A DNA stretch of 49,721 bases from an uncultured Oscillospiraceae bacterium (GCA_964518645.1 CAZFGL010000002.1:1-49721); one strand, 5' to 3'; positions 7,902 to 23,406 are shown, numbered from the stretch's first letter. Notes: generated by a model not told the origin, from the sequence alone. Numbers and translations: made by a program.

Positions 7902-7936
7902 ACGCTGGCATTCCGGAAATTCCGAAATGCCAGCGT
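7902..7936 (-). promoter_or_regulatory. Strong intercistronic stem-loop between oxidoreductase and SBP2 (attenuator or mRNA-stabiliser; no clear U-run)
   Basis: ACGCTGGCATT (7902..7912) pairs with AATGCCAGCGT (7926..7936). Four further inner pairs CGGA/TCCG follow. Confidence 0.5.
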
Positions 7937-7943
7937 GTTGGTT

Positions 7944-9926
7944 TTATCGAATCTGTGCCGCTGCGGACAGTGCCCCCCGGGTACAGGTGTGGATATTCCC
8001 CACCCGGTTGCAATCGCCAATGGCAAAGAACTGATCCGCACAATCCCGGAAGGAGATCGCCTGCTCCTGCAAGGCCTTCATACCGCCGCAGGCCACTACG
8101 CTGTCTCCGGTGACTGTTTTTTCTACACCTTCGTCCAGATAGGTCACACTGTTGGGGGTAATCCCCATGGTTTTCACCTTTGTCAGCGCCTTCAGCTGCT
8201 TCTGCTCCCGGAGGGCATGCTCCAGCCCGCTGTAATAATGGGAGAACTGGGCATCCGTTGCCAGCCGGTCCCGGCGGGTCAGAATGGTCACCTGATGGCC
8301 GTTCTGGGCCAGATACAGGGCCGTCTCCGTGGCGGATTCGGAACCGCCCACCACGATCACATGGCTGCCCAGCTCATTTTCCCGACCGAACACATCCACA
8401 TGGTTCCAGATGCCCTCAGCATCGGCACCCTTTACATCGGGCTTCTTCGGCACTGCCCCCACCGCTGCGATCACAGCGTCGTAGCCCAGAGAGCGGATCC
8501 CCTCCGGGGTGGCCTCTGTCCCCAGATGTACTACGACCCCCTGCTTCTCCAGCTGCCGTTCCAGATACTCTTTGTGACGGCGGATGGGCCATTTGAAGGA
8601 GGCATAGTCCCCGTGCAGCATCTGACCGCCCAGACGGTTTGCCTTTTCATAAAGATCCACCTGATGTCCCCGCTTGCGACACTCCATCGCCGCCCACATG
8701 CCCGCAGGGCCACCGCCGATCACCGCCACCTTCCGGCTTTCTCCCGGGGCAGGCAGCATCCGCTCGATCTTGTGTTCCAGACCCATGGCAGGGTTTACAT
8801 AACAAATAACATTATCCCGACAGTGGCAGCGGTTGCACAGCAGACAGGGCACCACATCCTCACCTCTGCCCTCCCGCAGCTTATCTCCGTACTCGGGATC
8901 ACAGATAAAGGCTCTTGCCACGGCGATCATATCCGCCTTACCCTGGGCGATGCACGCCTCCATCAATTCGGGATCCTGAAAACCTCCGTTTGGGGCGGTC
9001 ACAATGTTAACACCCGCAGCCTTGATTGCAGCAGAATACCGAATAGTCAGAGGCTCCTGAGCCCCAGTATAATTCAGTCCTGTGGGGTGTGCCAGATCCA
9101 TATCCGGAGCACGGAGCTGCAAAATATCCACAAGGCCTTCCCAGCCTTTGCAGTAGCCCACAAAATCCTCCAGCGTATAGCCCCCCAGTTCTTCTCCGGA
9201 GACCTGTGCCTCAATGAGGAAGTCCTGTCCGCACAGTTCCTTGACCCGGCGGAATACACTTCTGGTCAGTTCCAGCTTGTCCCCGTATTTGTCTGTCCGC
9301 CGGTTGTGTACCGGAGAGAGAGACTTTGCCAGCAGGGAGTTTCCGTAGGACATATAGAAGCACACCATGTCAAAGCCCATCTGACAGAAGGCATAGGCCT
9401 TCTGCGCCAGCAGCTCCACCAGATGATCCAGTTCCTCGGTGCTTGCCACATGGGTCTTGACCGGAGGCCCCATCATGGGTCTGCCTGCGGGCATTTCCGA
9501 AAGAGTCAGATTCCGGGGCTCGATCCCCATCATGGATGCGGATGCCAGAGAGCCATAAAAATGGATCTCATCGGTCATATGGGAATAGTACAGCTTACAC
9601 CCCCGGGTCTCCGCCTCCAGATTGCCCATACCCGGGCCGCCGAAGCTGCCCACGCCCCACACATCCGGCCCCCCGGGGCCACCGGGCCCCGGGCCCATTC
9701 CTCCGGAAGTATCCCCGAAGAAGGGGTCGCTTTTCCAGTCTGCGCCCTGACAGGTGACCACCGCAGCTCCGGAACGTGCCAGCTGTGCCATGTGAGAGAT
9801 CATTGCCTCACCTGGGTAATTTTCGTCCCCCTGAAAGGCCCCCGATACACTCCGTGTCACCAGCAGGCGATTTTTTAAAAGTCTTCCACCCACCAGAATG
9901 GGGGAAAGCAGATTTGCGTAACGCAT
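7944..9926 (-). CDS. NADH:flavin oxidoreductase of the 2,4-dienoyl-CoA reductase / BaiCD-BaiH-like family (OYE-type barrel + Cys cluster + FAD/NAD(P) domain), divergent copy 1
   Basis: Track ORF 7944..10043. ATG 9926 follows AAAGGAG and gives MRYANLLSPILVGGRLLKNRLLV (typical OYE start). Cys cluster PCLLCNRCHCRDNVIC. Rossmann motif KVAVIGGGPAGMWAAMECRKRGHQVDLYEKANRLGGQ, plus a second dinucleotide fold HVIVVGGSESATE. It carries a G/P-rich insertion and a non-canonical YMSYGNSLL in place of the H-x-AHG-type motif seen in copy 2. Confidence 0.85.
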   Translation of the reverse strand: MRYANLLSPILVGGRLLKNRLLVTRSVSGAFQGDENYPGEAMISHMAQLARSGAAVVTCQGADWKSDPFFGDTSGGMGPGPGGPGGPDVWGVGSFGGPGMGNLEAETRGCKLYYSHMTDEIHFYGSLASASMMGIEPRNLTLSEMPAGRPMMGPPVKTHVASTEELDHLVELLAQKAYAFCQMGFDMVCFYMSYGNSLLAKSLSPVHNRRTDKYGDKLELTRSVFRRVKELCGQDFLIEAQVSGEELGGYTLEDFVGYCKGWEGLVDILQLRAPDMDLAHPTGLNYTGAQEPLTIRYSAAIKAAGVNIVTAPNGGFQDPELMEACIAQGKADMIAVARAFICDPEYGDKLREGRGEDVVPCLLCNRCHCRDNVICYVNPAMGLEHKIERMLPAPGESRKVAVIGGGPAGMWAAMECRKRGHQVDLYEKANRLGGQMLHGDYASFKWPIRRHKEYLERQLEKQGVVVHLGTEATPEGIRSLGYDAVIAAVGAVPKKPDVKGADAEGIWNHVDVFGRENELGSHVIVVGGSESATETALYLAQNGHQVTILTRRDRLATDAQFSHYYSGLEHALREQKQLKALTKVKTMGITPNSVTYLDEGVEKTVTGDSVVACGGMKALQEQAISFRDCADQFFAIGDCNRVGNIHTCTRGALSAAAQIR

Positions 9927-9994: not shown

Positions 9995-11647
9995 TTAACG
10001 GGAATTGTAGCGATCCAGTGCAGTCTGCTTGATCTCGATGCACTCTTCGATGCCCATGGTCTTCAGAGTTTCCACAAAGGCGTCGTATTCGTCCATGGAG
10101 GTCACGCCGATGACAAAATTGGGCAGCTGCTCGGAAATATAGGTGTCAATGTCGTTGTACTTGCTGTAGAACTGCTCGCTCTCAGCGATGGTCATTTCCG
10201 CAAAGGAGGGGTAGATATTGGCGTTGTCATTGTGATCCGCCCATACGGAACGGGACTTCAGCTGCTGCTCGTTATAGGTGTTGTCCATACGGGTGTTGTC
10301 GTTGACAAAACCGGCGCAGTTGAACAGGGCGTACAGGGCAATGGCCTGATTGAAGCTGATGTCCGGGTTGTTGGCAACCAGATCGGTAAACTGGGGCTTG
10401 CCGTCCACCATCTCATAGCTGAGGCCCTCGATGCCGTAGTTGGCCATCAGGGTACCCTGCTCGGAATACCAGAAATCACACCACTTTGCAGCCAGTTCCG
10501 GATTCTCGCAGTTGCCGGAGATGGCCCACTCAGCGCCTCTGCCTACCTTGCTGGTAATTTCGCTGAAGTGAAGCTGCTGTCCCTCTTCCAGAACAGGCAG
10601 ACCAATGGGTTCTGCGTTCACGGCAAAGTAGCCGTAGGCATTGGATGAGTTCCGCCACAGGCCGGTCTGTGCGTTCTGCACGTCATCGGTGGTGTCGGGC
10701 TTATCCACACCGTCTGCCTGGGTTGCGAAGTCCTGATAAATCAGTCCCTCGGAATACCACTTGCTGATCATAGTCAGATAATCCTTCATGCCGTCCTCCA
10801 GGAAGCCAAACTTCACCTGGCCGTCCTCCTGATAGAAATCAGCAATCACGCCGTATGCTGCGGTCAGATCCGCAGTGGAAGCGGTATTGTCCACCCACAG
10901 GGGCGCCTTTGCCCCCAGTTCATCCCGGAAGGCCACCAGAGTATCATACCAGTCGTCCATGGTAACAGGCATCTCTCTGCCCACTGCATCCAGCATATCC
11001 ACGTTGATCCAGTGACCGCCGCGGATATATACATTCTCGTCATTGATGGTCATAAAGGAAGGGATATTGCCCTCGTTGGTCACAACGCTCTTGGCCACCT
11101 CTTCATCCTCATGAATGATTCCCCAGTAGTTGGGGCATACGGTGTCGATCAGTTCGGTCAGGTCGATAATTGTCTCTTCCTCAATGGCCTGATCGTAAGT
11201 ACCGGTGTAGAAGTTGCCAAAGTCACAGATGATGTCCGTGCAGTCGCCGCCGGCCAGCATCAGGGAGAACTGCTCAGAACCGTTGATAATGGAAACGCCG
11301 GTAATGTCCAGTTCAATGCCGGTAAGCTCCGTCATCTCCACAAACAGAGGCTTTTCCTCAATGGCAATGAAATTGGTCAACCAGGGGGGATAGGTGTACC
11401 ACACAGAAAGGGTGGCATCGTGGTCAGCAAAGGGCAGTTCCATGGGTGCAGGGCCTACAGGCTCCTCCGGTACGGAGGCTACCTGGGTCTCGGTCTCCTG
11501 CTCGGAGGCCGGTGCCACAGATTCTTCCTCCACTGCGGGTGCACTCTCGGTCTGGCTGACAGCAGTCTCAGATTCCTGAGTACCGCCGCAGGCTGCCATA
11601 CCAAGGATCAGGCACAGGGTCAGCAACAGGCAAACAAGTCTCTTCAT
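9995..11647 (-). CDS. Large extracellular solute-binding lipoprotein, paralog 3 of 4
   Basis: 550 aa. MKRLVCLLLTLCLILGMAACGG (lipobox), an acidic linker, and a core with ISKWYSEGLIYQDF. GGAGG RBS. It begins 24 nt after the type-C NTF2 gene. Confidence 0.9.
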   Translation of the reverse strand: MKRLVCLLLTLCLILGMAACGGTQESETAVSQTESAPAVEEESVAPASEQETETQVASVPEEPVGPAPMELPFADHDATLSVWYTYPPWLTNFIAIEEKPLFVEMTELTGIELDITGVSIINGSEQFSLMLAGGDCTDIICDFGNFYTGTYDQAIEEETIIDLTELIDTVCPNYWGIIHEDEEVAKSVVTNEGNIPSFMTINDENVYIRGGHWINVDMLDAVGREMPVTMDDWYDTLVAFRDELGAKAPLWVDNTASTADLTAAYGVIADFYQEDGQVKFGFLEDGMKDYLTMISKWYSEGLIYQDFATQADGVDKPDTTDDVQNAQTGLWRNSSNAYGYFAVNAEPIGLPVLEEGQQLHFSEITSKVGRGAEWAISGNCENPELAAKWCDFWYSEQGTLMANYGIEGLSYEMVDGKPQFTDLVANNPDISFNQAIALYALFNCAGFVNDNTRMDNTYNEQQLKSRSVWADHNDNANIYPSFAEMTIAESEQFYSKYNDIDTYISEQLPNFVIGVTSMDEYDAFVETLKTMGIEECIEIKQTALDRYNSR

Positions 11648-11671: not shown

Positions 11672-12559
11672 TTATAACCGGACGCCGCCCTTGACGATGG
11701 ATCGCAGTGCGGAGTACCGTTTTGTGATGTCGTTATGGCCGGGGGCATAGGAATTTTCATCATCCAGCGTTTTATAGGGCTCCGGCCAGGGAACCGTATT
11801 CTGAACCACCTGGGTCATGGATGCATTGTTATGCAGGGGGCCAACATCCGTGCAGGGCGGGCCGCCCAAAGCCCCTCTGGGCTTCACCGGGCGGAATCCA
11901 CCGGGCATTCCCCCGGGGGCGCCCTCCGGCTCCTGCTTTTTCTCCTCCTGAGGGGGTGGTCCGAAACCGGGACGGGGATGCAGTTCCTCGTCATACATAT
12001 TCTGTCCCCAGTTGCTGGTGCCGTATTCGGAACCAATATCCGGACACACATGCTCGTGGAAATAGTACCACTTGCCGTCAGTATCATCGAAGGCAAAGTC
12101 CGAACCGTAGCGTTCCCACAGGAACCCGCCGTTGCGCACCTTATTGGGGCTCATTCTGGCCATCATGGTTCCCGGTGTCAGATAGCAGCTTCGGCCGGTT
12201 TTTCCGTCCTCCGCCACCTCGATCACGCCGGAAGCCAGACAGTGGAGGGCTGTACAGCCCACACTGCGGGCATCGAAATAGGAGGCACCCCGGTAGTTGA
12301 GAATGTGATTGCAGTAGCGCTCATAGTACCCGTCCTCGGGATTGATCACCGAGCCGAACCAGACCTCATCCCAGCCCACCATTCTTCCGAAAAAGTGCGC
12401 CCATGTGACGTCCTCCCCCCGGTACCAGATGGCATCCCACTCTTCCTTGGAGTATCCCATACCGTGGGTATATGCATGCCACGCCTTCACCTGTTCAATT
12501 TCCTGCGCGCCGATAGCATTGTGCAGACGCTGTTCAAAGGTTAAATCCTGATAAATCAT
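11672..12559 (-). CDS. NTF2/SnoaL-like protein, type C, copy 1 (unknown function)
   Basis: Track ORF starts at GTG 12571. ATG 12559 (MIYQDLTFEQRLHNAIG...) aligns residue-for-residue with the start of paralog C2 (MKTHLSLHQRIHNADG...). NTF2-like blocks: IEQVKAWHAYTH, HCLASGVIEVAEDGKTGRSCYLTPG, DGKWYYFHEHVCPD. A G/P-rich tail ends WPEPYKTLDDENSY.... No signal peptide. Confidence 0.8.
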   Translation of the reverse strand: MIYQDLTFEQRLHNAIGAQEIEQVKAWHAYTHGMGYSKEEWDAIWYRGEDVTWAHFFGRMVGWDEVWFGSVINPEDGYYERYCNHILNYRGASYFDARSVGCTALHCLASGVIEVAEDGKTGRSCYLTPGTMMARMSPNKVRNGGFLWERYGSDFAFDDTDGKWYYFHEHVCPDIGSEYGTSNWGQNMYDEELHPRPGFGPPPQEEKKQEPEGAPGGMPGGFRPVKPRGALGGPPCTDVGPLHNNASMTQVVQNTVPWPEPYKTLDDENSYAPGHNDITKRYSALRSIVKGGVRL

Positions 12560-12571
12560 ATGGCATCCCAC

Positions 12572-13339
12572 TTACTTGTAAAGACCGATCTTGTAGCAGG
12601 CGGGCTTGCCCTCTGCATTGTAGGCTTTGGTGGGATCAAAGGAATAGTAGGGACGGGGCAGCCGCTCCCACACATCCACCCAGCCATACAGAGAGTCATA
12701 GGCCACATCCCGGATGGTGGGATCTCCGCAGGCCTGCTCCACAATATCCGCCCCCCAGGGCGCTTCCGGATCTAGCTCTCCGTAGCTTCTTCCGGCGGGA
12801 ATGATATGGTCATAGGTAATCAGCAGGTGCCAGATCTTCCAGTCCTCTCCCTCCTTTTTCAGATCCGCAAAGATCTTTGCAAAGGTGAAATTGCTGTCAG
12901 AACCGCCCTCGCCATCGCCCACGCAGTACAGTCCGCAGTCATAGCCGATATACTTTGCGGTCTGGCCGTCTCCGGCCACCTCAATATAAGGGGTGTTCAT
13001 GGTATGCACAAAGGAGGCACCGTGGCCAAGATTCTTCTCACAGGGTTCTGTTCCCTGCTTTTCCTGATAGTGCTTCAGATTTTCCATGCGGGTCTGGTAC
13101 TGGTCATAGACATAATGCTTTATGATATTCTCCAGCCCCACATAATAGCCGTTGTTGTACCCAAGGGACGCAGATGCCAGATTCTCCTCCCGGGAGACCC
13201 AAAGTTCCGTAATGCAACGGCGGCGGTCATCATTGGCGGTATAATAGGCGTAACGGCACATCAGATCCTTGATCTCTTCCTTGTCCCAAAGCCGCCAGAC
13301 CTGTTCCTCAGGGGTCAGGTGCAAATTCATCTCAGACAT
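12572..13339 (-). CDS. NTF2/SnoaL_4-like protein, type B, copy 1 (unknown function)
   Basis: 255 aa with an AAGGAGG RBS. Blocks EEIKDLMCRYAYYTANDDRRR..ELW, FVHTMNTPYIEVAGDGQTAKYIGY and EGEDWKIWHLL match the SnoaL_4 pattern (as in BaiE-type dehydratases). The tail contains LPRPYYSFDPTKAY. Confidence 0.85.
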   Translation of the reverse strand: MSEMNLHLTPEEQVWRLWDKEEIKDLMCRYAYYTANDDRRRCITELWVSREENLASASLGYNNGYYVGLENIIKHYVYDQYQTRMENLKHYQEKQGTEPCEKNLGHGASFVHTMNTPYIEVAGDGQTAKYIGYDCGLYCVGDGEGGSDSNFTFAKIFADLKKEGEDWKIWHLLITYDHIIPAGRSYGELDPEAPWGADIVEQACGDPTIRDVAYDSLYGWVDVWERLPRPYYSFDPTKAYNAEGKPACYKIGLYK

Positions 13340-13353
13340 ATTTCCCGCCTCCT

Positions 13354-14082
13354 TTATGCGCCGTAGCTGAAGGTCTCAGCAAATGTTCTGTAAGGCTCAG
13401 GCACCCGGGGAGAGGGGGTAAAGGGACGATCTGCCCCATAGGTCTCCCGGAGGGTACAGGCTCGGGTGGGTCTGGGGAATTCCAGGGTTCCCATCTTCGC
13501 AAATGCAGGATCCTCCGGCAGTGGCTGGGGGGTATCCGTCAGATTGATTCCCTGACGGCAGTCCACCTCATGGAGGTCCAGCATGTGCCAGATCTTCCAC
13601 TGGCCATCCTCCAGAATGAAATCCACAGCCCAATAGCTGAAATCCCAGTAGGACACAGGCCCCGCCGTGGTGACCCGCTCCACCAGGCCACGAACCACCC
13701 AGAGTCCCTTGGCGGTCTGAAGGTCATCAGCCACCTCCACCACCGCAGTATCAATGGGACGGTAGGACACCTGCCCCACACCGAAGCATTCCTCCGGGGT
13801 TTTGTCCCCCAGCTTCTCCGGGAACCGGGCCTGAATGAGCCGGCTTGCCAGCGCTGTCTCGGCAGCAATGGCACCATAGTACCCGTCAATGGCTTCTCTG
13901 CCCAGATAATATCCATCGTTGACCCCCAGACTTACATCCGGCCGGCTGCTCCAGAACCGGGGCAGCTGTCCCTCCTGCTTAATGCAGTAGCTCTGGGAAT
14001 ACTTGCCCATAATATTCTGCACCTCCCGGCGAATCTCCCACCGGGTCAGCAGCTGTTCTGCCGTAAACGCTTTTTTCACCAT
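13354..14082 (-). CDS. NTF2/SnoaL-like protein, type A, copy 1 (unknown function)
   Basis: 242 aa with a GGAAGGAG RBS. Blocks REVQNIMGKYSQSY, PIDTAVVEVADDLQTAKGLWVV and EDGQWKIWHMLDL. The Pro-rich tail ends RPFTPSPRVPEPYRTFAETFSYGA. Its closest in-window relative is 17951..18691. Confidence 0.85.
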   Translation of the reverse strand: MVKKAFTAEQLLTRWEIRREVQNIMGKYSQSYCIKQEGQLPRFWSSRPDVSLGVNDGYYLGREAIDGYYGAIAAETALASRLIQARFPEKLGDKTPEECFGVGQVSYRPIDTAVVEVADDLQTAKGLWVVRGLVERVTTAGPVSYWDFSYWAVDFILEDGQWKIWHMLDLHEVDCRQGINLTDTPQPLPEDPAFAKMGTLEFPRPTRACTLRETYGADRPFTPSPRVPEPYRTFAETFSYGA

Positions 14083-14097
14083 AGCGCTGCTCCTTCC

Positions 14098-14949
14098 TTA
14101 CTTCTCCGGAGGTGCCCCAAAGGGGCCGCTTTTCACAGTGGGCTCCATCATAACCGGGGTACGATGGGCATTTTCCGTATCAATTCTCCATGTGCCGCCC
14201 AGCCATGTGTTGCTGTAGCACTTCACCTGGAAGGTAAACAGCTCGCTGCTAGTGGTGCCGGACCAGAGGTTCCAGCACAGATAGCCGTTCTCGATTCTGA
14301 GATCCTGCATGGGCTGGTTGTCATTTTCCGTGGCGTGCATACCCGTAAGGACACCGTCCTTCTCTTCGATCACGATATGATGCTTGGGCACCCCGTCGAT
14401 TCCCAGAATGGTAAGATAGTATTCTCCGGGGATGGTAGGCTCCTTATGAACCATGGGCATCTTCCGGAACCGGGCATAGATGGTCTCATCCACAAATACG
14501 GCGTATTTACCTCCGTCTCCGCCGGACAGCTGGGGATCGGTCACGACAAACATGCCGCCGATGTCCTTGCCCTCTCCGTTTACCATCAGGCCGTTTTCCC
14601 GGGTTTTCAGTCCTCCGTCTGCTTCCACCGCACCAAAGGCAAGGCACAGGGGCTTATATTCCTTTACCGCTTCCCCGGTCAGAATTACAGCATCACAGTT
14701 TACGATTACCTTCCGGCCGTCTCCGGTCTGATGGCCCATCACCCCGGCCACCCGCCCCTCGGGATAGAGAATAATCTTATCCAGTTTTACCCCTTCCACA
14801 ACTTCTGCGCCCTGAGGCACATCCGTAAGCTTTCCGCCATGGAGCATGATTGTCTCTGCACCGGTGTTCATGGATGCCTGAGTCGCAGCGGTGGCCACAG
14901 AACCTGCACCCACCACAAGGGACTGGGTTTTCATAATAATACGATTCAT
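14098..14949 (-). CDS. Hypothetical protein with N-terminal Rossmann-like dinucleotide-binding motif and unknown beta-rich C-terminal half; first gene of the minus-strand operon
   Basis: 283 aa with an AGGAGG RBS 8 nt before ATG 14949. SLVVGAGSVATAATQASMNTGAETIMLHGG resembles a GxGxxA beta-alpha-beta fold. CDAVILTGEA and GLKTRENGLMVNGEGKDIGGMFVVTD resemble the ATG and G-D motifs of FAD-dependent disulfide-reductase-type enzymes, but the protein is far too short for a complete two-domain enzyme. Confidence 0.7.
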   Translation of the reverse strand: MNRIIMKTQSLVVGAGSVATAATQASMNTGAETIMLHGGKLTDVPQGAEVVEGVKLDKIILYPEGRVAGVMGHQTGDGRKVIVNCDAVILTGEAVKEYKPLCLAFGAVEADGGLKTRENGLMVNGEGKDIGGMFVVTDPQLSGGDGGKYAVFVDETIYARFRKMPMVHKEPTIPGEYYLTILGIDGVPKHHIVIEEKDGVLTGMHATENDNQPMQDLRIENGYLCWNLWSGTTSSELFTFQVKCYSNTWLGGTWRIDTENAHRTPVMMEPTVKSGPFGAPPEK

Positions 14950-15142
14950 AAGAATTACCTCCTGTCTCTGATATATTTATTTTACCGAAGCCTGGAACCA
15001 GGAAAAAGAACCAGAATTCTTACGTCACATGCCAAAATCAAAACTGGAAATGAGTTTTCAGTTGTATTTTTGATAGCCCCACCCCCGTCAAACCTGTGTT
15101 ATACTATATTTTGTATATTCCCAGGAAAGGACCTGCACCGCC
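14950..15142. promoter_or_regulatory. Divergent control region between the minus-strand NTF2 operon and the AraC pair
   Basis: 193-nt AT-richer gap. It holds the inverted repeat CCTGG-AA-CCAGG (14991..15002) and the direct repeat GAACCAG at 14995..15001 and 15008..15014. A minus-strand TAAAAT (14984..14979) has only a weak -35, which suggests activator dependence. Plus-strand TATACT/TATATT boxes lie at 15100..15119. Confidence 0.4.
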
Positions 15143-16504
15143 ATGAATGAGACACAATTTGATGTTCCGGAAACCCTGGAGCAGGAGGTACTCCGTCTGC
15201 GCCGGGAAAACCGGGAGCTTTCCGCCCTGTATCAGCGTCTGCGGAAACAGGAGCTGGTGAGTCACCTGCTCCGGGGCAAGTTTCTGGACGTGGACAGAAT
15301 TCTGGAGGATCTCCAAAGCTTTGGGATCTGTCTGAACCGGGATGATTATATTCTTCTGGGGATCACCGTACTTTCAGAGCCTATGGCCCTCGCTTCCGGC
15401 AGTACCGGGGAGGATCAGATGTATTTTGACCTCTATGTCCGAAAGCTGGAACAGATTCTGATGGATACCATTGCCCCCCATTACGAATGCAACGTGGCCC
15501 ATATGGACTCCGGTGCCGTATGTCTGGTGGGCGTGCCCCATCACGGCGATGCTCCGGTGCTTCCGGAGCAGGGAAAGTTCCACATTCAGCCCCCGGGGGA
15601 GAATATCATCAACCGGATGAACCAGCTGGCACTGACCATCTACGACCGGGTCAAGGCTGAGCTGTCTCTGGAAGTATTCATCGCCATCAGCCGTCCCAGC
15701 CGGGGCGTTGACGGAATTCCCGCCGCCTATACCGATGTGCGTCAGATTCTGGATTACAAACAGATGATGCGGGTAGATGTGCCTGTACTGTGCTACCATG
15801 ATTTTGAATTGGAGGAAAACAGCCGAAAATCCGATTACAGCAGCCTTCAGCTGGAGAAGGAGTATCTCCGGCAGGTGGAACTGGGCGATTATGAAAAGGC
15901 CCGGGAAACCATGCACCGGATCCTGAAGCAGGACTTTATCACTGCGCCCCCCTCGCTCCACACCGTCAAGGTAAAAACCAGCGCAAAGCTCCACACTCTG
16001 CTGCTCACGCTGGATCGTTTCACCCCGGATCAGGACTCCGAAACCTATCACCAGATCCTCAGCTGCCTGCAACGGATCGAGGAGGATACCCTCACCACAG
16101 ATCAGCTGGAAAATCTGGTGGATCATGTATTTGACCGGATCCGGCAGTACGCTCTGGAGCTTGACACCGATCCCCGTCCCCGCTGGCTCACGGAGATGAT
16201 GGCCTATATTGAAGAGCACTACCGGCAGCCGGATCTGAACGTCTCCTCCCTCAGCAACCGGTTCCACATGACCCCCTCTTATCTTTCAAAGGAGACCAAG
16301 CGTTTTACCGGCAGCACCCTTTTTGACTATATTCAGAAGCTGCGACTGGAATACGCACAGGTGCTTCTCGCCGCCGGTTACACCACCCAGAGTGCCGCCG
16401 AGGACAGTGGTTTTGGGGACGTGCGTTCCATGCGCCGTGCCTTCCAGAAGTATCTGGGTGCCACCCCCAGACAATACGCCACGCCAAAGCAGACCGACAA
16501 CTGA
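15143..16504 (+). CDS. AraC family transcriptional regulator with ~340-aa non-receiver N-terminal domain (regulator 1)
   Basis: 453 aa. The C-terminal double HTH is YIEEHYRQPDLNVSSLSNRFHMTPSYLSKETKRFTGSTLFDYIQKLRLEYAQVLLAAGYTTQSAAEDSGFGDVRSMRRAFQKYLGATPRQY. The N-terminus has a heptad-like stretch (LEQEVLRLRRENRELSALYQRLRKQEL). No phospho-acceptor receiver motif is seen. Confidence 0.9.
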   Translation: MNETQFDVPETLEQEVLRLRRENRELSALYQRLRKQELVSHLLRGKFLDVDRILEDLQSFGICLNRDDYILLGITVLSEPMALASGSTGEDQMYFDLYVRKLEQILMDTIAPHYECNVAHMDSGAVCLVGVPHHGDAPVLPEQGKFHIQPPGENIINRMNQLALTIYDRVKAELSLEVFIAISRPSRGVDGIPAAYTDVRQILDYKQMMRVDVPVLCYHDFELEENSRKSDYSSLQLEKEYLRQVELGDYEKARETMHRILKQDFITAPPSLHTVKVKTSAKLHTLLLTLDRFTPDQDSETYHQILSCLQRIEEDTLTTDQLENLVDHVFDRIRQYALELDTDPRPRWLTEMMAYIEEHYRQPDLNVSSLSNRFHMTPSYLSKETKRFTGSTLFDYIQKLRLEYAQVLLAAGYTTQSAAEDSGFGDVRSMRRAFQKYLGATPRQYATPKQTDN

Positions 16505-16515
16505 CAGGAGGGCTT

Positions 16516-17751
16516 ATGGGTTTCTCAGATGTTATTTTCTATACCGGAGGGCTCCGGAAGCCAAATCTGGATCTCACCTGTGCCAGAGACATGGCCGACG
16601 AGTTGTTCACCCACTCCGACGGGGTGGATCCCAAATTCCACGAGGAGCTTCGTCAGGCGGGGATCCTGTTGCCGGAGCCTCCATTCCGGCTCATCTCCGT
16701 GTCCCCCGGCATGGGTGGCGCCCGTTTCACCATGGCCCATGCCCTTCAGTTTGCAGAAGAAATGACCCGGCATCTCCCACGCTTTCTCTCCGCCGACGGA
16801 CTGTTCTTTTATAACAACAGCATTATGCAGGGCATCGTCTCCGTAAAGGACAAAACCGAGATGCCCCGGCTTTATCAGGAGCTTCAGCAGATCATCTGGC
16901 AATACAGCGCCGCTGCCCGCCCCCATGCCGCCGTCAGCAACAGCTACGACGACTATCTGTTCATCAGCAGAGCCTGTGCGGAAAATCAGGAAGCTCACCA
17001 GTTTGCCCGGTTCCTCACCTGTCCCATTGACGTGATCGTGCAGCCCGGGGATTTCTATCTTCAGGGCGGTGACCAGCCGGTGGGTGAGGACGAGGAGTTC
17101 TTCGGCCAGATCTCCCAGAAGATCTGCAACGCCCTTCTTGCTCAGGATCCCCAGCGGGCACACCGGGCTCTGGACGAGGGGATCCATTTCACCATAGGGA
17201 AATTTCCACGGGTTTCCGGGGTTCACATGCGTGCCCTCCGGTTCTGTCACGCACTGGAAATGACACTGGTAGGCGCCGACCTGATCGACCGGCTTTTTGT
17301 GCAGAAGTTTCATCTGTTGGAGGACGTGATCGAGGCGGACAATGAACAGGCTCTCCGGGAAACCTTCCACAGGAAGCTGGATGCCATCTTCATCTACTCC
17401 GAGGAGCGAAAAAAGCTCCACCACGGGGCGCAGATGCGTCAGGTGGTGGAGTATATCGGCAGAAATCTGACAGATTCAACCCTGTCTATCTCCACCATTG
17501 CGGAGAATTTCCACATGAACGAGGAGAAGCTTTCCGCCGAATTCCGGGGCTATTTTCAGGAGACCATTCCAAACATGATCCATCAGCGCCGGGTGGAATA
17601 CATCAAAAAACAGCTGATTCACACCGGCAAGACGGTACAGGAAATCTGCACCGACGCAGGGTACATCAGCCTTGCCACCATGAACCGGGCATTTTCCCGG
17701 CTGGAGGGTATGTATCCCGGCCAATACCGCCAGAAATATCGAAATAAATAA
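16516..17751 (+). CDS. AraC family transcriptional regulator (regulator 2), tandem to regulator 1
   Basis: 411 aa with an AGGAGGG RBS. The C-terminal HTH is VVEYIGRNLTDSTLSISTIAENFHMNEEKLSAEFRGYFQETIPNMIHQRRVEYIKKQL..TGKTVQEICTDAGYISLATMNRAFSRLEGMYPGQYR. It starts 11 nt after regulator 1. Confidence 0.9.
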   Translation: MGFSDVIFYTGGLRKPNLDLTCARDMADELFTHSDGVDPKFHEELRQAGILLPEPPFRLISVSPGMGGARFTMAHALQFAEEMTRHLPRFLSADGLFFYNNSIMQGIVSVKDKTEMPRLYQELQQIIWQYSAAARPHAAVSNSYDDYLFISRACAENQEAHQFARFLTCPIDVIVQPGDFYLQGGDQPVGEDEEFFGQISQKICNALLAQDPQRAHRALDEGIHFTIGKFPRVSGVHMRALRFCHALEMTLVGADLIDRLFVQKFHLLEDVIEADNEQALRETFHRKLDAIFIYSEERKKLHHGAQMRQVVEYIGRNLTDSTLSISTIAENFHMNEEKLSAEFRGYFQETIPNMIHQRRVEYIKKQLIHTGKTVQEICTDAGYISLATMNRAFSRLEGMYPGQYRQKYRNK

Positions 17752-17759
17752 TCTGACAA

Positions 17760-17795
17760 GCGTGCTGCAATGTATTTTGCGGCACGCCCTTTTTT
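17760..17795 (+). terminator. Rho-independent terminator of the AraC pair
   Basis: Stem GCGTGCTGC (17760..17768) / GCGGCACGC (17779..17787) with one G-U pair. CC then TTTTTT (17790..17795) follows. Confidence 0.7.
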
Positions 17796-17835
17796 GCTCA
17801 TTTGTCATAAAAACTGCTCATTCTTCCTGGATTTG

Positions 17836-17864
17836 TTTACTTTGTTTTTTGTGGTTTTTATAAT
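17836..17864 (+). promoter_or_regulatory. Putative promoter of the plus-strand NTF2 A2-B2-C2(-SBP4) operon
   Basis: TTTACT (17836..17841), a 17-nt spacer, then TATAAT (17859..17864). The ~85-nt leader contains a GC stem GGGCAGGG/CCCTG(T)CCC (17876..17895). TTCCTGG lies just upstream (17824..17830). Motif match only. Confidence 0.45.
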
Positions 17865-17950
17865 GAAGCTGTAACGGGCAGGGGTCCCCTGTCCCACGCC
17901 GGGATGTATATCGTCTCCGGACACTCCCAACAGAAAGCGAGGCTAAACAA

Positions 17951-18691
17951 ATGAAAGCTTACACAAGCGAGCAGCTGGTAGGTCTGTTTGAAGATCAGCG
18001 TGATCTGAAAAACCTGATGGGCAAGGTCTGCTACACCATGCTGCTGAAGCAGGAAAAGGACATGGTTGCCCGGTTCTGGTCTACCCGGGATGACATCTGC
18101 CTTGGTCTGAATGATGGATACTATGTGGGCGCAGAGGCTGTGAAGGGCTACTATCAGGCCATTCACCAGCACACACTGGAGGCCACAGAGTTTTTAAAGG
18201 ATGCCTTCCCCGACCGGATGGGCAAGCTCACCCAGGATGAGCAGTATGGTGCCGGTTCCATGGATGTGAAGCCCATGGACACCGCCGTGATCGAGATCGC
18301 CGGAGACGGCGAATCCGCCCGGGGCATCTGGTACTCCCGGGGCACTTATAATGACCTGACTCCGCAGGGGCCTCTGGCTTTCTGGAAGCTGGGCGTATAC
18401 GCCTGTGATTTTGTCCGGGAAAAGGGCCAGTGGAAAATTCTAAACATGCTGAATCTGGTGGACATCCACACCCCCGGTGGCAGAAGCTGGGGCGATCCCG
18501 CTCAGGAGTCCTATCCGGATCTGCCGGAGTTTGCCGGTGCCTCCCCCTTCTGTGCACCGGCTCCCACCCATCCAAAAAAGCTGATGGAGGTCTATTACCC
18601 CGGCCGTCCCTTTACCCCCCTGCCGGAGCCGCCGGTTCCCTATGAGACCCTGTCCGAAACGAACACCTACGGATACAGAGAGGAGGCCTGA
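17951..18691 (+). CDS. NTF2/SnoaL-like protein, type A, copy 2
   Basis: 246 aa. Blocks RDLKNLMGKVCYTM, PMDTAVIEIAGDGESARGIWYS and EKGQWKILNMLNL. The tail is RPFTPLPEPPVPYETLSETNTYGY. It is collinear with A1 (13354..14082). Confidence 0.85.
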   Translation: MKAYTSEQLVGLFEDQRDLKNLMGKVCYTMLLKQEKDMVARFWSTRDDICLGLNDGYYVGAEAVKGYYQAIHQHTLEATEFLKDAFPDRMGKLTQDEQYGAGSMDVKPMDTAVIEIAGDGESARGIWYSRGTYNDLTPQGPLAFWKLGVYACDFVREKGQWKILNMLNLVDIHTPGGRSWGDPAQESYPDLPEFAGASPFCAPAPTHPKKLMEVYYPGRPFTPLPEPPVPYETLSETNTYGYREEA

Positions 18692-18693
18692 AC

Positions 18694-19467
18694 ATGAATT
18701 ACTACGAGGATAAGATATTCACCGATGACGAACTGATCGTCCGGGTCATGGATAAGGAAGAGATCAAAAAGCTGATGGCAAAGCGGGCCTTCTACTATGC
18801 CAACAATCAGCGGAGAAGAGAGCTTGACGAGCTTTGGGTAAAAACCCCGGAGTTCACCCGGAGTGCATCCTACGGCCGGAACTGGGGCTACTATGTGGGC
18901 ATGGACTCCATCGCTGACTATTATGTGGTGCAGCATACCAGACGGCAGTATGAGGCGCTGGAGGCCATCCATGCAAACGACCCCACCGTTGCGGTAAACA
19001 ATCTGAATCTGGGGCTGGGCTGCAGCGCATTCCATACCGTCACCACCCCCATGCTGTACATCGCCGGAGACGGTGCCACTGCCCGTGGTCTGTGGTACTC
19101 TGCCGGACAGGAGACCATTATGCAGGCAGACGGCACTGCAAAGGCCTACTGGACCATGGACAACATGGCCGCAGACTTTGTAAAGGAAAACGGCCAGTGG
19201 AAGATCTGGCATCTGGTGGTTTGCAGCGACTTCTTCGTGGAGGCCGGTACCGACTTCAAGACCGGCACACTGGAGCCTCTTACCGGGCCGGATCCCTTCC
19301 GGGACGAGTTCGGCACCCCGGACATTCCCATGACCGTTCACAATCCCCGGTATAATCTCTCCGACAACTATCCCCCCATGCCTCTGCCCTACGACACTTA
19401 TACGGTTCAGGGTTCCCTGGCTCCTGAGGGGCATCCCAACTATAAAAAGGAGGCTGTGAAAAGATGA
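18694..19467 (+). CDS. NTF2/SnoaL_4-like protein, type B, copy 2
   Basis: 257 aa with a GAGGAGG RBS, starting 2 nt after the A2 stop. Blocks EEIKKLMAKRAFYYANNQRRR..ELW, AFHTVTTPMLYIAGDGATARGLWYS and ENGQWKIWHLV. The tail contains MPLPYDTY. Collinear with B1. Confidence 0.85.
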   Translation: MNYYEDKIFTDDELIVRVMDKEEIKKLMAKRAFYYANNQRRRELDELWVKTPEFTRSASYGRNWGYYVGMDSIADYYVVQHTRRQYEALEAIHANDPTVAVNNLNLGLGCSAFHTVTTPMLYIAGDGATARGLWYSAGQETIMQADGTAKAYWTMDNMAADFVKENGQWKIWHLVVCSDFFVEAGTDFKTGTLEPLTGPDPFRDEFGTPDIPMTVHNPRYNLSDNYPPMPLPYDTYTVQGSLAPEGHPNYKKEAVKR

Positions 19468-20300
19468 AAACCCATCTGAGCCTGCACCAGCGCATCCATA
19501 ATGCAGACGGAAGCCAGCAGATCGAAAATCTGAAGGCCATCCACGCCTATACCCACGCCAGAAACTGGCCTGTGGAAGAATGGGACAACATCTGGGATCT
19601 TTCCGACGACTGTTCCTGGGCCCACGGCTTCGGCCGGTGGAGAGGCGGTTTTAAGGTATATCTCAACTCCGTTACCGAGTGGGACATTCCCACCTTCACC
19701 AACTATATGAAGCTGTATAAGCTCTATCCCGATGTAATGGGTATGGATCCCCGTCCCCTCAACTTCTCCCCGGTTCACAATCTTTCCAGCGAGATTATCG
19801 AGGTTGCCGACGACGGAAAATCCGCCCGGGGCGCATTTCTCACCCCCGGTAACATTTATGAGTATCTCAAGCCCCAGCAGCGCCGCCGGGCCATCTTCAT
19901 GTGGGAGCGCTACGGTGCCGACTTCATCTGCGACGAAAACGGCCACTGGAAATATCTCCACGAGCATGTGTGCCCGGACTTCCAGGGCAATTATGACGAT
20001 GTAAACTGGGGTCTGGAAGCGTATCAGGTGGCCACCGATCCCAATCGCCGGAATTCCGCCGCTCCCCCGCCGGATGCAGATTCCGCCGGACATCCCGATG
20101 GGGTAAACGGCCCCGCTCCCGAGGGGCCTCCGCCGGATTCCGCCGGCCCCAGAGATATGGCACTGGATGACCCCGGCCCCCTGCACCGGGAATATGAGTT
20201 CCTGATGCCCATTCAGAACACCTGTCCCTGGCCGGAACCCTATGGGACACTGGACAACAATAACACCTATACCCCCTTTATCGGTAAGGATCGGCTGTAA
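19464..20300 (+). CDS. NTF2/SnoaL-like protein, type C, copy 2
   Basis: 278 aa with an AGGAGG RBS. Its ATG overlaps the B2 stop (ATGA). Blocks IENLKAIHAYTH, VHNLSSEIIEVADDGKSARGAFLTPG and NGHWKYLHEHVCPD. A P/G/D-rich tail ends CPWPEPYGTLDNNNTY.... Collinear with C1. Confidence 0.85.
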   Translation: MKTHLSLHQRIHNADGSQQIENLKAIHAYTHARNWPVEEWDNIWDLSDDCSWAHGFGRWRGGFKVYLNSVTEWDIPTFTNYMKLYKLYPDVMGMDPRPLNFSPVHNLSSEIIEVADDGKSARGAFLTPGNIYEYLKPQQRRRAIFMWERYGADFICDENGHWKYLHEHVCPDFQGNYDDVNWGLEAYQVATDPNRRNSAAPPPDADSAGHPDGVNGPAPEGPPPDSAGPRDMALDDPGPLHREYEFLMPIQNTCPWPEPYGTLDNNNTYTPFIGKDRL

Positions 20301-20455: not shown

Positions 20456-22150
20456 ATGAAAAAACTTCTTGCACTCCTGCTGACCCTGTGTTTGATTTTC
20501 GGGCTGGCTGCCTGTGGCGGAACCACCGATTCCTCCGCCCCCACCTCTGCTGTTTCTGTTGAAGCTGCCTCCGAAGCTCCTGAAACAGAAGTTTCTGCTG
20601 AAGCCTCTGTCTCTGAGGCCGGAGCATCTGTCCCGGAGGAAGTCCCGGAATCTGTCGTTGCACCTGTACCCGTCACCCTCCCCATTGTGGACGAGCCTGT
20701 CACCTACACCATCTGGTACAACGAGCCCTTTACCGAGTACATTGACAACCCGGCGGAGGATGTGGCGATTTTCCGGCTCCTTGCGGAAAAGACCAATATC
20801 TCTCTGGACTTCCACCTTACCACCATTGATGCCGCCAGCGATCAGTTCCAACTTCTGTTTGCGGCAGATTCCCTGCCCAACATCATCACCGATGCCATGG
20901 ACTATTACGCTGGCTCCATTGATGATGCCGTATTCGAGGATGAGTTCCTCTACAACTACGCCGATGATCTGGCCGATATGACCAACTACAACGCCGTTCT
21001 GAATCAGTACATCGAGGCAAAAAAGACCATTACCAGCGCCGACTCCGGTGCCATGGTTTCCTTCCCCGAGCTGTACAAGGACGTAGGCGATGAGGACGGC
21101 TATATGATCCGCAAGGATTATCTGGATCTCACCGGCATGGACGTACCCACCACCTACGACGAGATGCACGACGTGCTTGCAGCCATTCATGAAAAGAACG
21201 GATCCGGTCTGGATCTCACCTCCTCCGGCGGCGATGCACTGCTGGGTGCAGGCTTCGGCATCAACTGCGGACTGGACTCCTCTGACCTTGCCGGCTGGTA
21301 TGTGGTTGACAATGAGGTAAGAATGGGCATCCTTCAGCCCGAGTTCAGGGATTATCTGGAGATGGTAAAGCAGTGGTACTCTGAGGGCATCATCTATGCA
21401 GATTTTATCAACTCCGATAACGGCGACCTCACCAACCTGTTCACCGGTGCTGTTTCCATCACCATGAAGGTGCCTGAGATCATTGACGTGGCTGCTGCTG
21501 TGGTAGGGGCTGAAATGATCCCCATGAAGGCCCCCGTAAAGCAGGCGGGAGACACGATCACCATCTGCGGTGGCGAAAGCTCCTGCCTGATGGATCCCCA
21601 CACCTGGTCCATCAATGTGCAGACCGAAAACATTGATCCCCTGCTGAAGATGATCGACTACATGTACTCCCCTGAAGCCACCGACATGATGAACTACGGC
21701 GAAGAGGGCGTTTCCTTTGAATATGACACCGAGGGCAATCCCCAGTTCACTGCTCTGGTGCTGGACAACCCCGACGATTACGACTATGCCCACGCTGCAT
21801 ATTTCTACGCCACCTCCAACCGCACCCGTCTGCCCTTCGTCTCCGACTACGCCCGCTGCTTCTCCGACTACTCCGAGGCAGCCATGGAGGCCGTGGAGAT
21901 CTACACCGACGACTGCACCCACGAGAATGACTACCCCAACGGGGCAATCATGAACACCGAGCAGACCCAGCAGTACAATACCGTTGCAGCAGATATCTGC
22001 ACCTACATTTCCGAGCATGTTCTCCAGTTCATCTATGGTCAGGAAGACATGGCTCAGTGGGACGCCTTCATTGATACCCTGTATGAAATGGGCATCGAGA
22101 CTGCCATCGAAGCCAAGCAGGCAGCCTATGAGGATTACCTGAACACCTAA
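20456..22150 (+). CDS. Large extracellular solute-binding lipoprotein, paralog 4 of 4
   Basis: 564 aa with an AAGGAG RBS. MKKLLALLLTLCLIFGLAACGG (lipobox), an acidic linker, and a core with VKQWYSEGIIYADF. Same position relative to its NTF2 cassette as SBP3. Confidence 0.9.
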   Translation: MKKLLALLLTLCLIFGLAACGGTTDSSAPTSAVSVEAASEAPETEVSAEASVSEAGASVPEEVPESVVAPVPVTLPIVDEPVTYTIWYNEPFTEYIDNPAEDVAIFRLLAEKTNISLDFHLTTIDAASDQFQLLFAADSLPNIITDAMDYYAGSIDDAVFEDEFLYNYADDLADMTNYNAVLNQYIEAKKTITSADSGAMVSFPELYKDVGDEDGYMIRKDYLDLTGMDVPTTYDEMHDVLAAIHEKNGSGLDLTSSGGDALLGAGFGINCGLDSSDLAGWYVVDNEVRMGILQPEFRDYLEMVKQWYSEGIIYADFINSDNGDLTNLFTGAVSITMKVPEIIDVAAAVVGAEMIPMKAPVKQAGDTITICGGESSCLMDPHTWSINVQTENIDPLLKMIDYMYSPEATDMMNYGEEGVSFEYDTEGNPQFTALVLDNPDDYDYAHAAYFYATSNRTRLPFVSDYARCFSDYSEAAMEAVEIYTDDCTHENDYPNGAIMNTEQTQQYNTVAADICTYISEHVLQFIYGQEDMAQWDAFIDTLYEMGIETAIEAKQAAYEDYLNT

Positions 22151-22205: not shown

Positions 22206-22574
22206 TTATTCAGCGGGAATGATCTCGATCTGGTATCCGTCCGGATCCTTGATGAAATACACAGGCTCCGTCTCCGGATCCCGGCAGATCACCCCCATCT
22301 TTTCGTGAAGGGCGTGGGCCTCTTCCATGTTTTCCACGGAAAATGCCACATGGAACTCATTGTCTCCCAAAGCATAGCCGCCGATTCTGCCGGGAACATA
22401 GCCCACCTCCAGCTGATGGGCAGACTCCCCGTCGGAGAGGAACACCAGTGTAGCGTCCATGTCGCTGGGATGCATCACCTTTGCGGTGGTCAATCCCAGT
22501 GCCTCCTCATAGAACTTCAGAGACCGTTCCAGATCAGAAACAAATACACAGTTGTGGGCAAACCGGAATTTCAT
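22206..22574 (-). CDS. VOC (glyoxalase I / epimerase-fold) family protein
   Basis: 122 aa. FAHNCVFVSDLERSLKFYEEALGL...HVAFSVENMEEAHALHEKMG...DPDGYQIEII is the classic paired beta-alpha-beta-beta-beta VOC pattern. GGAGGAG RBS. It starts 15 nt after the SDR stop. Confidence 0.85.
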   Translation of the reverse strand: MKFRFAHNCVFVSDLERSLKFYEEALGLTTAKVMHPSDMDATLVFLSDGESAHQLEVGYVPGRIGGYALGDNEFHVAFSVENMEEAHALHEKMGVICRDPETEPVYFIKDPDGYQIEIIPAE

Positions 22575-22589
22575 TCTGGTCTCCTCCCC

Positions 22590-23369
22590 TTACATCTGCA
22601 TACCGCCGCAAACAGGCAGTGCACAACCGGTGATATGGCCGGACATGTTGGAGCAGAGGAACATCACGGCATCCGCCACATCGGAGGTGGTGCCCAGCTT
22701 GCCCATGGGGATCACGTTCTGCATCAGGAAATCCACATCCTGTGCGCCGGAGGCCTTGCTGTCTGCCATCAGATTGGTGCCATCGGTGGGGCCGGGGCAG
22801 ATTACATTGACACGGATGCCGTTCTTTGCGTTTTCCACAGCAGCGGTCTGGGTAATTGCGATTACGCCTGCCTTGGAGGGGCCGTAAGCACCAAATCCGG
22901 GAGCCATGTTCAGTCCGCCGATGGAGGAGGTGTTTACAATGGCACCGCCGCCCTGCTTGTTCATCTGGATCATCTCATACTTCAGGCAGTGGAACATGCC
23001 GGTCAGGTTGGTGGAGATCACCTTCAGCCAGTCACTCTCAGTCACCTCAGTCAGAGGAGCAAAGGGAATATTCACGCCGTCAGCACCGCATCCGGCATTG
23101 TTGAAGGCATAGTCCAGTGCGCCGAAGGTCTGGACTGTGGTCTCAATGGCATTCTTGACAGATTCCTCGTCGGCCACATCGCAGGGAACGAAGATGGCTT
23201 CGCCGCCGGCCTCTTCCACCATTTTTACAGTCTCAGCGGCTGCTGCGGGCTTTCTTGCGGCAACTGCCACCTTGCAGCCCAGAGATCCGAAACGGACTGC
23301 CACTGCACGGCCCATACCGGAAGCTGCACCGGTAACAAACAGGACTTTACCCTTCATCTCTTCAAACAT
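22590..23369 (-). CDS. SDR family NAD(P)-dependent oxidoreductase
   Basis: 259 aa. TGAASGMGRA (TGxxxGxG), NNAG, NTSS and YGPSKAG (YxxxK) motifs. AAAGGAAG RBS. Confidence 0.9.
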   Translation of the reverse strand: MFEEMKGKVLFVTGAASGMGRAVAVRFGSLGCKVAVAARKPAAAAETVKMVEEAGGEAIFVPCDVADEESVKNAIETTVQTFGALDYAFNNAGCGADGVNIPFAPLTEVTESDWLKVISTNLTGMFHCLKYEMIQMNKQGGGAIVNTSSIGGLNMAPGFGAYGPSKAGVIAITQTAAVENAKNGIRVNVICPGPTDGTNLMADSKASGAQDVDFLMQNVIPMGKLGTTSDVADAVMFLCSNMSGHITGCALPVCGGMQM

Positions 23370-23406
23370 AATAATCTTCCTTTCCGATTATAAAAGTATT
23401 TTATTT

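Follow-up and report, generated by a model that had tools for sequence, protein, structure and literature searches.

Paired three-gene cassettes of NTF2/SnoaL-like paralogs from uncultured gut and rumen Clostridia: a candidate heteromeric enzyme

Introduction

Enzymes of the NTF2 fold are textbook small homo-oligomers. The subject of this report is a pair of three-gene cassettes encoding NTF2/SnoaL-like proteins in a 49,721-nucleotide (nt) stretch of DNA from an uncultured Oscillospiraceae bacterium (GCA_964518645.1 CAZFGL010000002.1:1-49721), the whole of which is called the window; positions are counted from its first letter, and (+) or (-) gives the strand. A reading of the DNA made without database searches (the sequence-only reading) had described six open reading frames (ORFs) of three types, A, B and C, as two inverted, anciently diverged copies of one cassette and as a candidate heteromeric enzyme. 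The genes, their homologs and their neighbourhoods were analysed here by profile, structure-prediction and synteny methods.

Results

Two inverted A-B-C cassettes

All six ORFs were recovered with the boundaries that the sequence-only reading had proposed, and they lie in two inverted cassettes. Cassette 1 runs from 14082 to 11672 on the minus strand and begins with A1 (13354-14082, -; 242 amino acids, aa), followed by B1 (12572-13339, -; 255 aa) and C1 (11672-12559, -; 295 aa from the ATG at 12559, a start that agrees with the 295-aa gene call on identical contigs). Cassette 2 runs from 17951 to 20300 on the plus strand and comprises A2 (17951-18691, +; 246 aa) as its first gene, B2 (18694-19467, +; 257 aa) and C2 (19464-20300, +; 278 aa).

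The sorting into three types, with identities within each type put at 35-45 % by eye, was borne out by BLASTP, which gave values far beyond chance: 42 % for A1/A2 (E 6e-70), 36 % for B1/B2 (E 2e-47) and 41 % for C1/C2 (E 1e-69). Between types, A and B proteins were 28-30 % identical (E 1e-15 to 2e-26), and C proteins were 22-29 % identical to A or B (E 4e-3 to 8e-15). At the DNA level, the 'IEIAGDGxxA[KR]G' hairpin occurs three times in cassette 2 with a spacing of ~750 nt, and the two cassettes are connected by a series of inverted repeats.

The genes are closely spaced. The A2 stop and the B2 start are separated by 2 nt, and GAGGAGG lies upstream of this junction; AAGGAGG precedes the ATGA in which B2 and C2 overlap; and the 14-nt gap between A1 and B1 contains AGGAGG. 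The 12-nt gap between B1 and C1 (GTGGGATGCCAT) holds no AGGAGG-type ribosome-binding site, so the tight coupling described earlier stands for the spacing of all four junctions, but a ribosome-binding site of that type is missing from one of the two cassette-1 gaps credited with it.

Fold and closest relatives

The Pfam model SnoaL_4 (PF13577; curated cut-off 24 bits) matched B1 (33.0 bits), A2 (32.5 bits) and B2 (39.1 bits) above the cut-off and A1 slightly under it (22.4 bits); C1 and C2 gave no SnoaL_4 match. Precomputed PF13577 assignments are present on several C-type and A-type homologs. None of the six proteins matched an NCBIfam family, and an Rfam scan of the window gave no match. Profiles of A, B and C were built from 88 cassettes and compared using hhalign, giving E 7e-45 for A-B, E 2e-24 for A-C (a full-length alignment that takes in the C-terminal tail) and E 3e-26 for B-C; type C was tied to A and B with an hhalign probability of 99.6-99.7 %.

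AlphaFold2 (AF2) monomer models were made for A2 (pLDDT 93) and C2 (pLDDT 75.5), and these show an identical order of elements and NTF2 topology, the alpha+beta cone in which three helices pack against a curved antiparallel sheet. A Pro-rich linker in C2 (residues 200-227) is disordered in the model and precedes a conserved C-terminal tail, 'P-E-P-Y-x-T...[ST]-Y', which is common to A, B and C. In Foldseek searches of the PDB, the lignin-dimer lyase LdpA was the best match for both models (A2: 8ABU/8ABT, E 1e-10, ~246 columns; C2: E 5e-7), followed for both by LinA, Rv3472, BaiE and scytalone-dehydratase-like proteins; the A2 model aligned with LdpA chains over 232-246 columns. At E<=1e-3 there were 154 PDB matches for A2 and 44 for C2, and among the matches listed (the top 50 for each) all were of the NTF2 fold. 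In PDB sequence searches LdpA was the sole match, a weak one in the case of B2.

The NTF2/SnoaL fold was thus confirmed by Pfam, profile-profile comparison, AF2 and Foldseek. Hallmarks of SnoaL_4 had been assigned to all six proteins, and this holds at the level of fold, with significant Pfam scores for B1, A2 and B2 only and with type C placed by profile-profile and structural comparison. Among the relatives named earlier, BaiE, LinA and scytalone dehydratase were recovered as fold matches, but the closest is the LdpA lyase clade rather than BaiE or ketosteroid isomerase. No clear orthology to a characterised enzyme emerged from the sequence and structure searches. A, B and C are ancient paralogs in an LdpA-like branch of the NTF2/SnoaL_4 superfamily.

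Distribution and conserved order

A scan of species-representative genomes gave 337 matching stretches, and the synteny counts rest on the 79 loci (L numbers) retrieved. Almost all of these come from metagenome-assembled genomes (MAGs) of uncultured Oscillospiraceae or other Clostridia, and the source samples on record are human gut, deer rumen and similar. From two to four loci come from the same MAG in many cases, and two or three cassettes are found together at many of the loci. A type-C profile search of 1.84 billion proteins returned 754 cluster representatives at E<=1e-3, of which 92 reached E<=1e-30; one type-C sequence cluster by itself was found on 360 contigs. Homologs in protein collections are all unnamed, 'hypothetical' or 'nuclear transport factor 2 family protein'.

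A genes were counted for synteny only where at least 1.5 kb of downstream sequence was available, and in 80 of these 80 testable cases A was followed by B and then by C. An A gene lies upstream of 88 of the 89 B genes; the two exceptions among C genes were one A-B fusion and one tandem second C. Each kind of junction (A-B and B-C) is a 4-nt overlap in 34 of 86 cassettes, an arrangement typical of translational coupling. The pairwise-distance matrices of A, B and C are correlated (r 0.88-0.91; <=0.18 with permuted labels), which together with the fixed order indicates that cassettes evolve as units whose members are not shuffled. Obligate co-encoding is seen in the invariant co-occurrence, the fixed order, the 1:1:1 gene ratio and the frequent overlapping junctions, and the co-inheritance that had been read from the window alone therefore extends to other genomes.

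Relatives of cassette 2 in other MAGs are 81-95 % identical to it, whereas those of cassette 1 among the retrieved loci are just 39-54 % identical; the two copies are therefore old, distinct lineages of a multi-copy family and not the product of a recent local duplication. The ancient duplication that had been suggested accordingly stands as regards three old types in a fixed order; it was not private to this locus, and the duplicated unit extends to a downstream gene for a solute-binding protein (SBP), described below.

Seven loci with typical Clostridia-type cassettes (L006, L015, L026, L032, L034, L043 and L053) come from MAGs binned as Bacteroidaceae, Barnesiella or Prevotella, which probably reflects binning errors rather than true occurrences in Bacteroidota. 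At L084 (3008-5091), from a 'Coprococcus sp.' MAG and the most prevalent human-gut relative, with a type-C protein found on 360 contigs, a canonical A-B-C cassette is preceded by a divergent, shorter NTF2 trio (244, 221 and 216 aa) whose members cannot be assigned clearly to the three types. A single NTF2-type gene of a fourth, far more distant kind, scoring ~50-60 against type A, is repeatedly found ~0.1-3 kb from the A gene, at L021, L032, L036, L043, L044, L048, L055, L059, L077 and L079. It lies upstream of A on the same strand except at L043, where it is divergent, and where mapped it stands either in the order SDR - NTF2 - flavoenzyme - A-B-C (SDR, short-chain dehydrogenase/reductase) or directly before A (L036). 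In some type-C proteins (P0188, P0241, L012 7763-9367 and L013 8274-9854) the C terminus is extended by a further domain of ~200 aa that matches no Pfam family, attached in L012 and L013 via a long Gly/Pro-rich linker; the domain is free-standing at L071 (4635-5309) and absent from the window.

Candidate catalytic residues

Dehydroxylation of the LdpA substrate to a quinone methide relies on a His-Asp dyad together with a Glu-Tyr-Gln triad (Glu139-Tyr161-Gln166, motif II), and the H97Q mutant of NaLdpA is inactive (PMC9942872). In an alignment of the type-C profile to LdpA, H105 corresponds to His97 of NaLdpA, E148 to Glu139 of motif II and Y150 to Tyr143. The catalytic-His column holds His in 87 of 88 C proteins and 70 of 88 B proteins, and in type A it holds Lys (52/88) or Arg (18/88). 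Equivalents of Glu139 and Tyr143 are present in 86 of 88 C proteins each and are absent from A and B. The invariant polar residues of type C are H27, H31, H54, R58, D95, R97, H105, E148, R149, Y150, D153, H166, C170, D172 and H241, and C1 retains the residues invariant in its type. Type A has invariant polar residues of its own, which include R17, N21, N54, D119 and D153.

The canonical His-Asp dyad (motif I of LdpA; His97/His93 and Asp36) was sought in all three types and rejected, as judged from sequence alignment, since the Asp is not conserved in A, B or C. The Asp36 position appears to be occupied by Leu/Ile in A (from a low-confidence HMMER alignment to LdpA) and, by hand register, by Ala in B and by Gly/Ala in C, where an invariant His stands one residue earlier.

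Gene fusions

Two loci encode A and B as one protein. L035 has a 523-aa in-frame A-linker-B protein followed by C, and in L085 the A-B protein has 499 aa and its gene is overlapped by 4 nt by the C gene that follows; the two fusions are 31 % identical and their linkers are unrelated. Other tandem two-domain NTF2 fusions were found among more distant relatives.

Neighbouring genes

Cassette 1 is co-oriented with a gene of no assigned family (gene X), an SBP gene and a flavoenzyme gene. Gene X (14098-14949, -; 283-aa ORF) lies 15 nt upstream of A1. It matched no Pfam or NCBIfam family and gave one sub-threshold Pfam match, to GMC_oxred_N; its N-terminus resembles a degenerate Rossmann/FAD-binding motif (VVGAGSVATAAT). 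Strong matches to gene X were found just in L007 and L015, the most closely related loci, with a marginal match of 27.7 bits in L028, and gene X may be an accessory of the cassette-1 lineage.

A solute-binding lipoprotein gene follows C in each cassette: 9995-11647 (-; 550 aa) after C1 and 20456-22150 (+; 564 aa; Pfam SBP_bac_1) after C2. The two proteins are 34 % identical and their genes are joined by the inverted DNA repeat I1. The presence of paralogous SBPs after both cassettes indicates that the ancient duplicated unit was A-B-C-SBP. Together with 4154-5896 and 6091-8043 they make four family-1 solute-binding lipoproteins of 550-650 aa, 28-34 % identical, in a 22-kb island. No ABC permease or ATPase gene was seen beside the four lipoprotein genes of the window, which are either orphan binding proteins sharing a translocator encoded elsewhere, or sensors.

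The last gene of the cassette-1 operon (7944-9926, -) encodes a BaiCD/2,4-dienoyl-CoA-reductase-like Fe-S flavoenzyme (Oxidored_FMN and Pyr_redox_2) of 660 aa from the ATG at 9926, and the same 660-aa call was found on identical contigs. Gly/Pro-rich low-complexity insertions (e.g. GGMGPGPGGPGGP) occur in the N-terminal third of this protein, in the C1 and C2 linkers and in FAD_binding_2 proteins of L022; their presence in unrelated enzymes looks like a habit of the lineage. Facing cassette 2 is a convergent group (22206-26397, -) in the order VOC - SDR - flavoenzyme - FMN-reductase-like, of which the VOC/glyoxalase-like protein (122 aa), the SDR (22590-23369; 259 aa) and a second BaiCD-like flavoenzyme (23407-25356; 649 aa) occupy 22206-25356 (-). 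For the flavoenzymes of the window, the NCBIfam models of BaiCD or bilirubin reductase were best or nearly best, with scores under half of the curated cut-offs (236-396 bits for BaiCD, cut-off 825); they are therefore members of the family and not BaiCD orthologs.

Between the cassettes lie two AraC-family regulators (15143-17751, +; 453 and 411 aa; Pfam HTH_18/HTH_AraC), and A2 is preceded by a terminator-like hairpin (17760-17787) and then a promoter-like site (17836-17864). Assignment to an equol cluster, on the pattern of an OYE-like enzyme with SDR and VOC in daidzein-to-equol loci, was considered and dropped: the VOC protein is closest to glyoxalase I and well below the cut-off, the flavoenzyme is far under the BaiCD and bilirubin reductase cut-offs and the SDR is generic. 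It is kept as an analogy only.

Neighbours were counted within 6 kb around each of 86 cassettes. Another cassette was present at 37, a BaiCD/2,4-dienoyl-CoA-reductase-like Fe-S flavoenzyme at 31 (at 14 of these directly upstream on the same strand), a family-1 SBP at 25 (at 11 directly downstream of C), LysR at 24, an Opp-type ATPase at 19, AraC at 13 and an FAD_binding_2 flavoprotein at 11. Six of the 86 cassettes have a relative of the SDR within 6 kb, and 7 other loci also contain one; that such relatives recur beside cassettes in other MAGs (e.g. L044 and L048) suggests a shared pathway. One operon order, SDR - single NTF2 - flavoenzyme - A-B-C, is recurrent, and the most prevalent human-gut variant has hydrolase - divergent trio - 443-aa protein - flavoenzyme - A-B-C.

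Two further genes of the window had no Pfam match. The first (26956-30384, -) encodes a ~1080-aa protein that looks like a surface protein with a signal peptide and a C-terminal membrane anchor. The second (30415-31872, +) encodes a 485-aa Cys-rich protein; proteins 23-34 % identical to it, among them right-handed beta-helix proteins, are encoded close to cassettes in L008, L044, L050, L054 and L082.

Discussion

The reading that we favour, and consider somewhat probable, is that A, B and C form an LdpA-like hetero-oligomer in which C provides the main active site, and that this complex works as an acid/base enzyme beside flavoenzymes on a small molecule. The A-B fusions favour a hetero-oligomer, as does the replacement of the catalytic His by Lys or Arg in A while it is kept in C, and the conserved tail that C carries on a long disordered linker looks like an arm docking on a neighbouring subunit. 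The assembly would most simply be one pseudo-symmetric A-B-C trimer, held together by the C-terminal 'P-E-P-Y-x-T...[ST]-Y' arms as arms hold the LdpA homotrimer. Type C would contribute His105, Glu148 and Tyr150 with other invariant His, Cys and Asp residues, type B might offer a second site, and type A could serve as a binding or scaffolding subunit.

As to chemistry, the combination of an NTF2-fold acid/base enzyme with ene-reductases and an SDR parallels both the logic of the bai operon and the dehydration by LdpA, and on these grounds we infer a lyase, dehydratase or isomerase, which would be free of cofactors. It may make or use an activated C=C intermediate, either an enone or a quinone methide, whose reduction or preparation would fall to the BaiCD-like Fe-S flavoenzymes and the SDR nearby. 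A small molecule of plant or host origin, such as a plant phenylpropanoid, a steroid or similar, would be the substrate, and it would be taken up via the adjacent solute-binding proteins under the control of AraC regulators.

Several observations weigh against this proposal. The dyad Asp is not conserved, and the chemistry may for this reason differ from that of LdpA, LinA and BaiE; the invariant His and Cys residues seen in the type-C alignment could mean a metal site and not cofactor-free catalysis. Median pairwise identity is 45 % for type A and 44 % for type C, so that A is as conserved as C, and a pure scaffold might not have to be conserved so well. Around 60 % of the cassettes lack a flavoenzyme within 6 kb, and strict synteny with correlated divergence would also fit three co-inherited separate enzymes.

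That last alternative, in which A, B and C are three homo-oligomeric NTF2 enzymes for consecutive or parallel (e.g. stereoisomer-specific) steps of one pathway, is regarded as rather unlikely, although it has a precedent in the stereospecific paralog sets employed in sphingomonad lignin-dimer pathways (PMC12997858). LdpA, LinA, BaiE and scytalone dehydratase, the close structural relatives that have been characterised, are homo-oligomers without exception, the three types are equally conserved, 80 % of B proteins have the catalytic-type His, and type A shows invariant polar residues peculiar to it. Separate enzymes would, however, sit poorly with the finding that 0 of 80 testable cassettes had lost, reordered or split a member despite divergence to 21-30 % identity, with the 1:1:1 ratio, overlapping junctions and A-B fusions, and with the Lys/Arg at the catalytic His and the missing Glu/Tyr motif of A. 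An improbable alternative is that the proteins are non-catalytic ligand binders acting as carriers, substrate-presenting partners or regulators of flavoenzymes or transport: many NTF2-like proteins are non-enzymatic (PMC3924330), the canonical dyad is incomplete, and regulators and binding proteins are constant neighbours, but the nearest structural relatives are all enzymes, and the dense invariant polar set of type C includes residues aligned with catalytic residues of LdpA. The window is ~55 % GC and contains many long spurious antisense ORFs, which speaks for a chance resemblance or spurious genes; that explanation is refuted by between-copy E-values down to 1e-70, hundreds of homologs with the same gene calls, confident models and conserved synteny, and its probability is taken to be negligible.

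Taken one step further, the hetero-oligomer could be the first obligate heterotrimeric NTF2-fold enzyme, a pseudo-symmetric trimer derived from an ancestral homotrimer by its splitting into a catalytic C, a semi-catalytic B and a non-catalytic A. Dozens of cassette variants in each clade would then make up, with the BaiCD-like Fe-S flavoenzymes, an anaerobic system not recognised before, by which uncultured gut and rumen Oscillospiraceae subject steroids or plant phenylpropanoids (lignans, lignin dimers, flavonoids) to cofactor-free dehydroxylation or C-C cleavage and then to ene-reduction. This fuller picture is put forward tentatively, its chances being judged a little short of even.

The cassette is best described as a real feature, widespread in uncultured gut and rumen Clostridia, and as a putative heteromeric variant of a known enzyme fold. 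What is new is the set of three obligatorily co-encoded paralogs; the NTF2/SnoaL_4 fold and the proximity to LdpA/PcfL are of an already known kind. If true, the conserved set of three paralogs would clearly exemplify in nature how a homotrimer evolves into a heterotrimer whose subunits divide the work. It is a large family, with multiple copies per genome and a distribution restricted for the most part to uncultured gut and rumen Clostridia, and its cassettes adjoin a flavoenzyme class that performs bile-acid, bilirubin, steroid and flavonoid reductions. Given this flavoenzyme class and the spread of the family, the loci probably transform dietary or host small molecules, and they are candidates for expression and screening.

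Comparison with known systems

No characterised three-paralog NTF2 cassette was found under any protein name or in the literature searched, in agreement with the sequence-only reading. Searches on heteromeric or three-paralog NTF2/SnoaL enzymes, and on gut NTF2-like enzymes with ene-reductases, returned nothing relevant, and no mention of the cassette family was found in two gut-reductase papers that were checked.

Heteromeric NTF2-fold assemblies are, to our knowledge, known only as dimers. NXF1-NXT1 (p15) is a non-enzymatic NTF2-fold heterodimer, and Nxf1/Nxt1 were among the Foldseek matches; PhzA/PhzB of phenazine biosynthesis is an NTF2-fold heterodimer of close paralogs with no C-terminal arm. 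Both offer a precedent for obligate or preferred hetero-oligomers of paralogous NTF2-fold domains, but they are dimers and not the products of a three-paralog operon. LinA, scytalone dehydratase and Rv3472 share the fold, belong to its trimer-forming subclass and have the catalytic His on the same strand as the His of C and B. They are single-gene homotrimers of 150-170 aa (dehydratases and a dehydrochlorinase) with a His-Asp dyad, whereas the cassette types have no conserved Asp, and they offer no heteromeric precedent.

For type C, the second-best structural group was the gallate decarboxylase AGDC1 and PEP2 (7KD9, 6W54 and 7JMR), which are cofactor-free, act on phenolics and at ~220-230 aa are similar in size to the cassette proteins. 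They are fungal, encoded by single genes and 8-14 % identical, and no sequence-level relationship to them was detected.

The bai operon of Clostridium scindens sets BaiE, an NTF2-fold homotrimeric bile-acid 7alpha-dehydratase of gut Clostridia, beside 2,4-dienoyl-CoA-reductase-type Fe-S flavoenzymes (BaiCD/BaiH) and SDRs, and its logic is that of BaiA, BaiCD, BaiE and BaiH. By analogy, the cassette with its flavoenzymes and SDR would resemble the 'oxidise, dehydrate, reduce' toolkit of bai. BaiE structures were significant Foldseek matches (E 2e-6 to 2e-4), at the level of fold only; BaiE is ~167 aa, encoded by a single gene and without a C-terminal arm, and gave no sequence match in the NCBIfam or PDB sequence searches. 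No other bai genes were found in the window, and membership of a bai operon was rejected, there being no orthology to BaiE and the flavoenzymes scoring far under the BaiCD cut-off.

In both sequence and structure, every type that was tested had its best match in the sphingomonad lignin-dimer gamma-formaldehyde lyases LdpA/PcfL (PDB 8ABT, 8ABU, 8ABV and 8ABW), which convert lignin-derived dimers into stilbenes by deformylation. LdpA is a homotrimer of ~250-aa subunits, in which an extended C-terminal arm wraps the neighbouring monomer and stabilises the trimer (PMC9942872). The cassette proteins (242-295 aa) have the same plan of an NTF2 cone with a long C-terminal arm, and share with LdpA the 'I-x-[IV]-A-x-D-G-x-T-A-[KR]-G' hairpin and the 'DG-x-WKI' strand. 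Differences are seen in identity, which is 16-22 % in structural alignments, in the dyad Asp and the motif-II Tyr/Gln, which are not evidently conserved, and in setting, the cassette hosts being strict anaerobes of gut and rumen with Fe-S flavoenzymes as partners rather than dioxygenases. Unlike the single-gene homotrimer, the cassettes encode three paralogs that are 22-30 % identical between types. Equivalents of the catalytic His97 (93 in SpLdpA), Glu139 and Tyr143 are retained in type C, and LdpA, too, works beside SDR enzymes in its own pathway.

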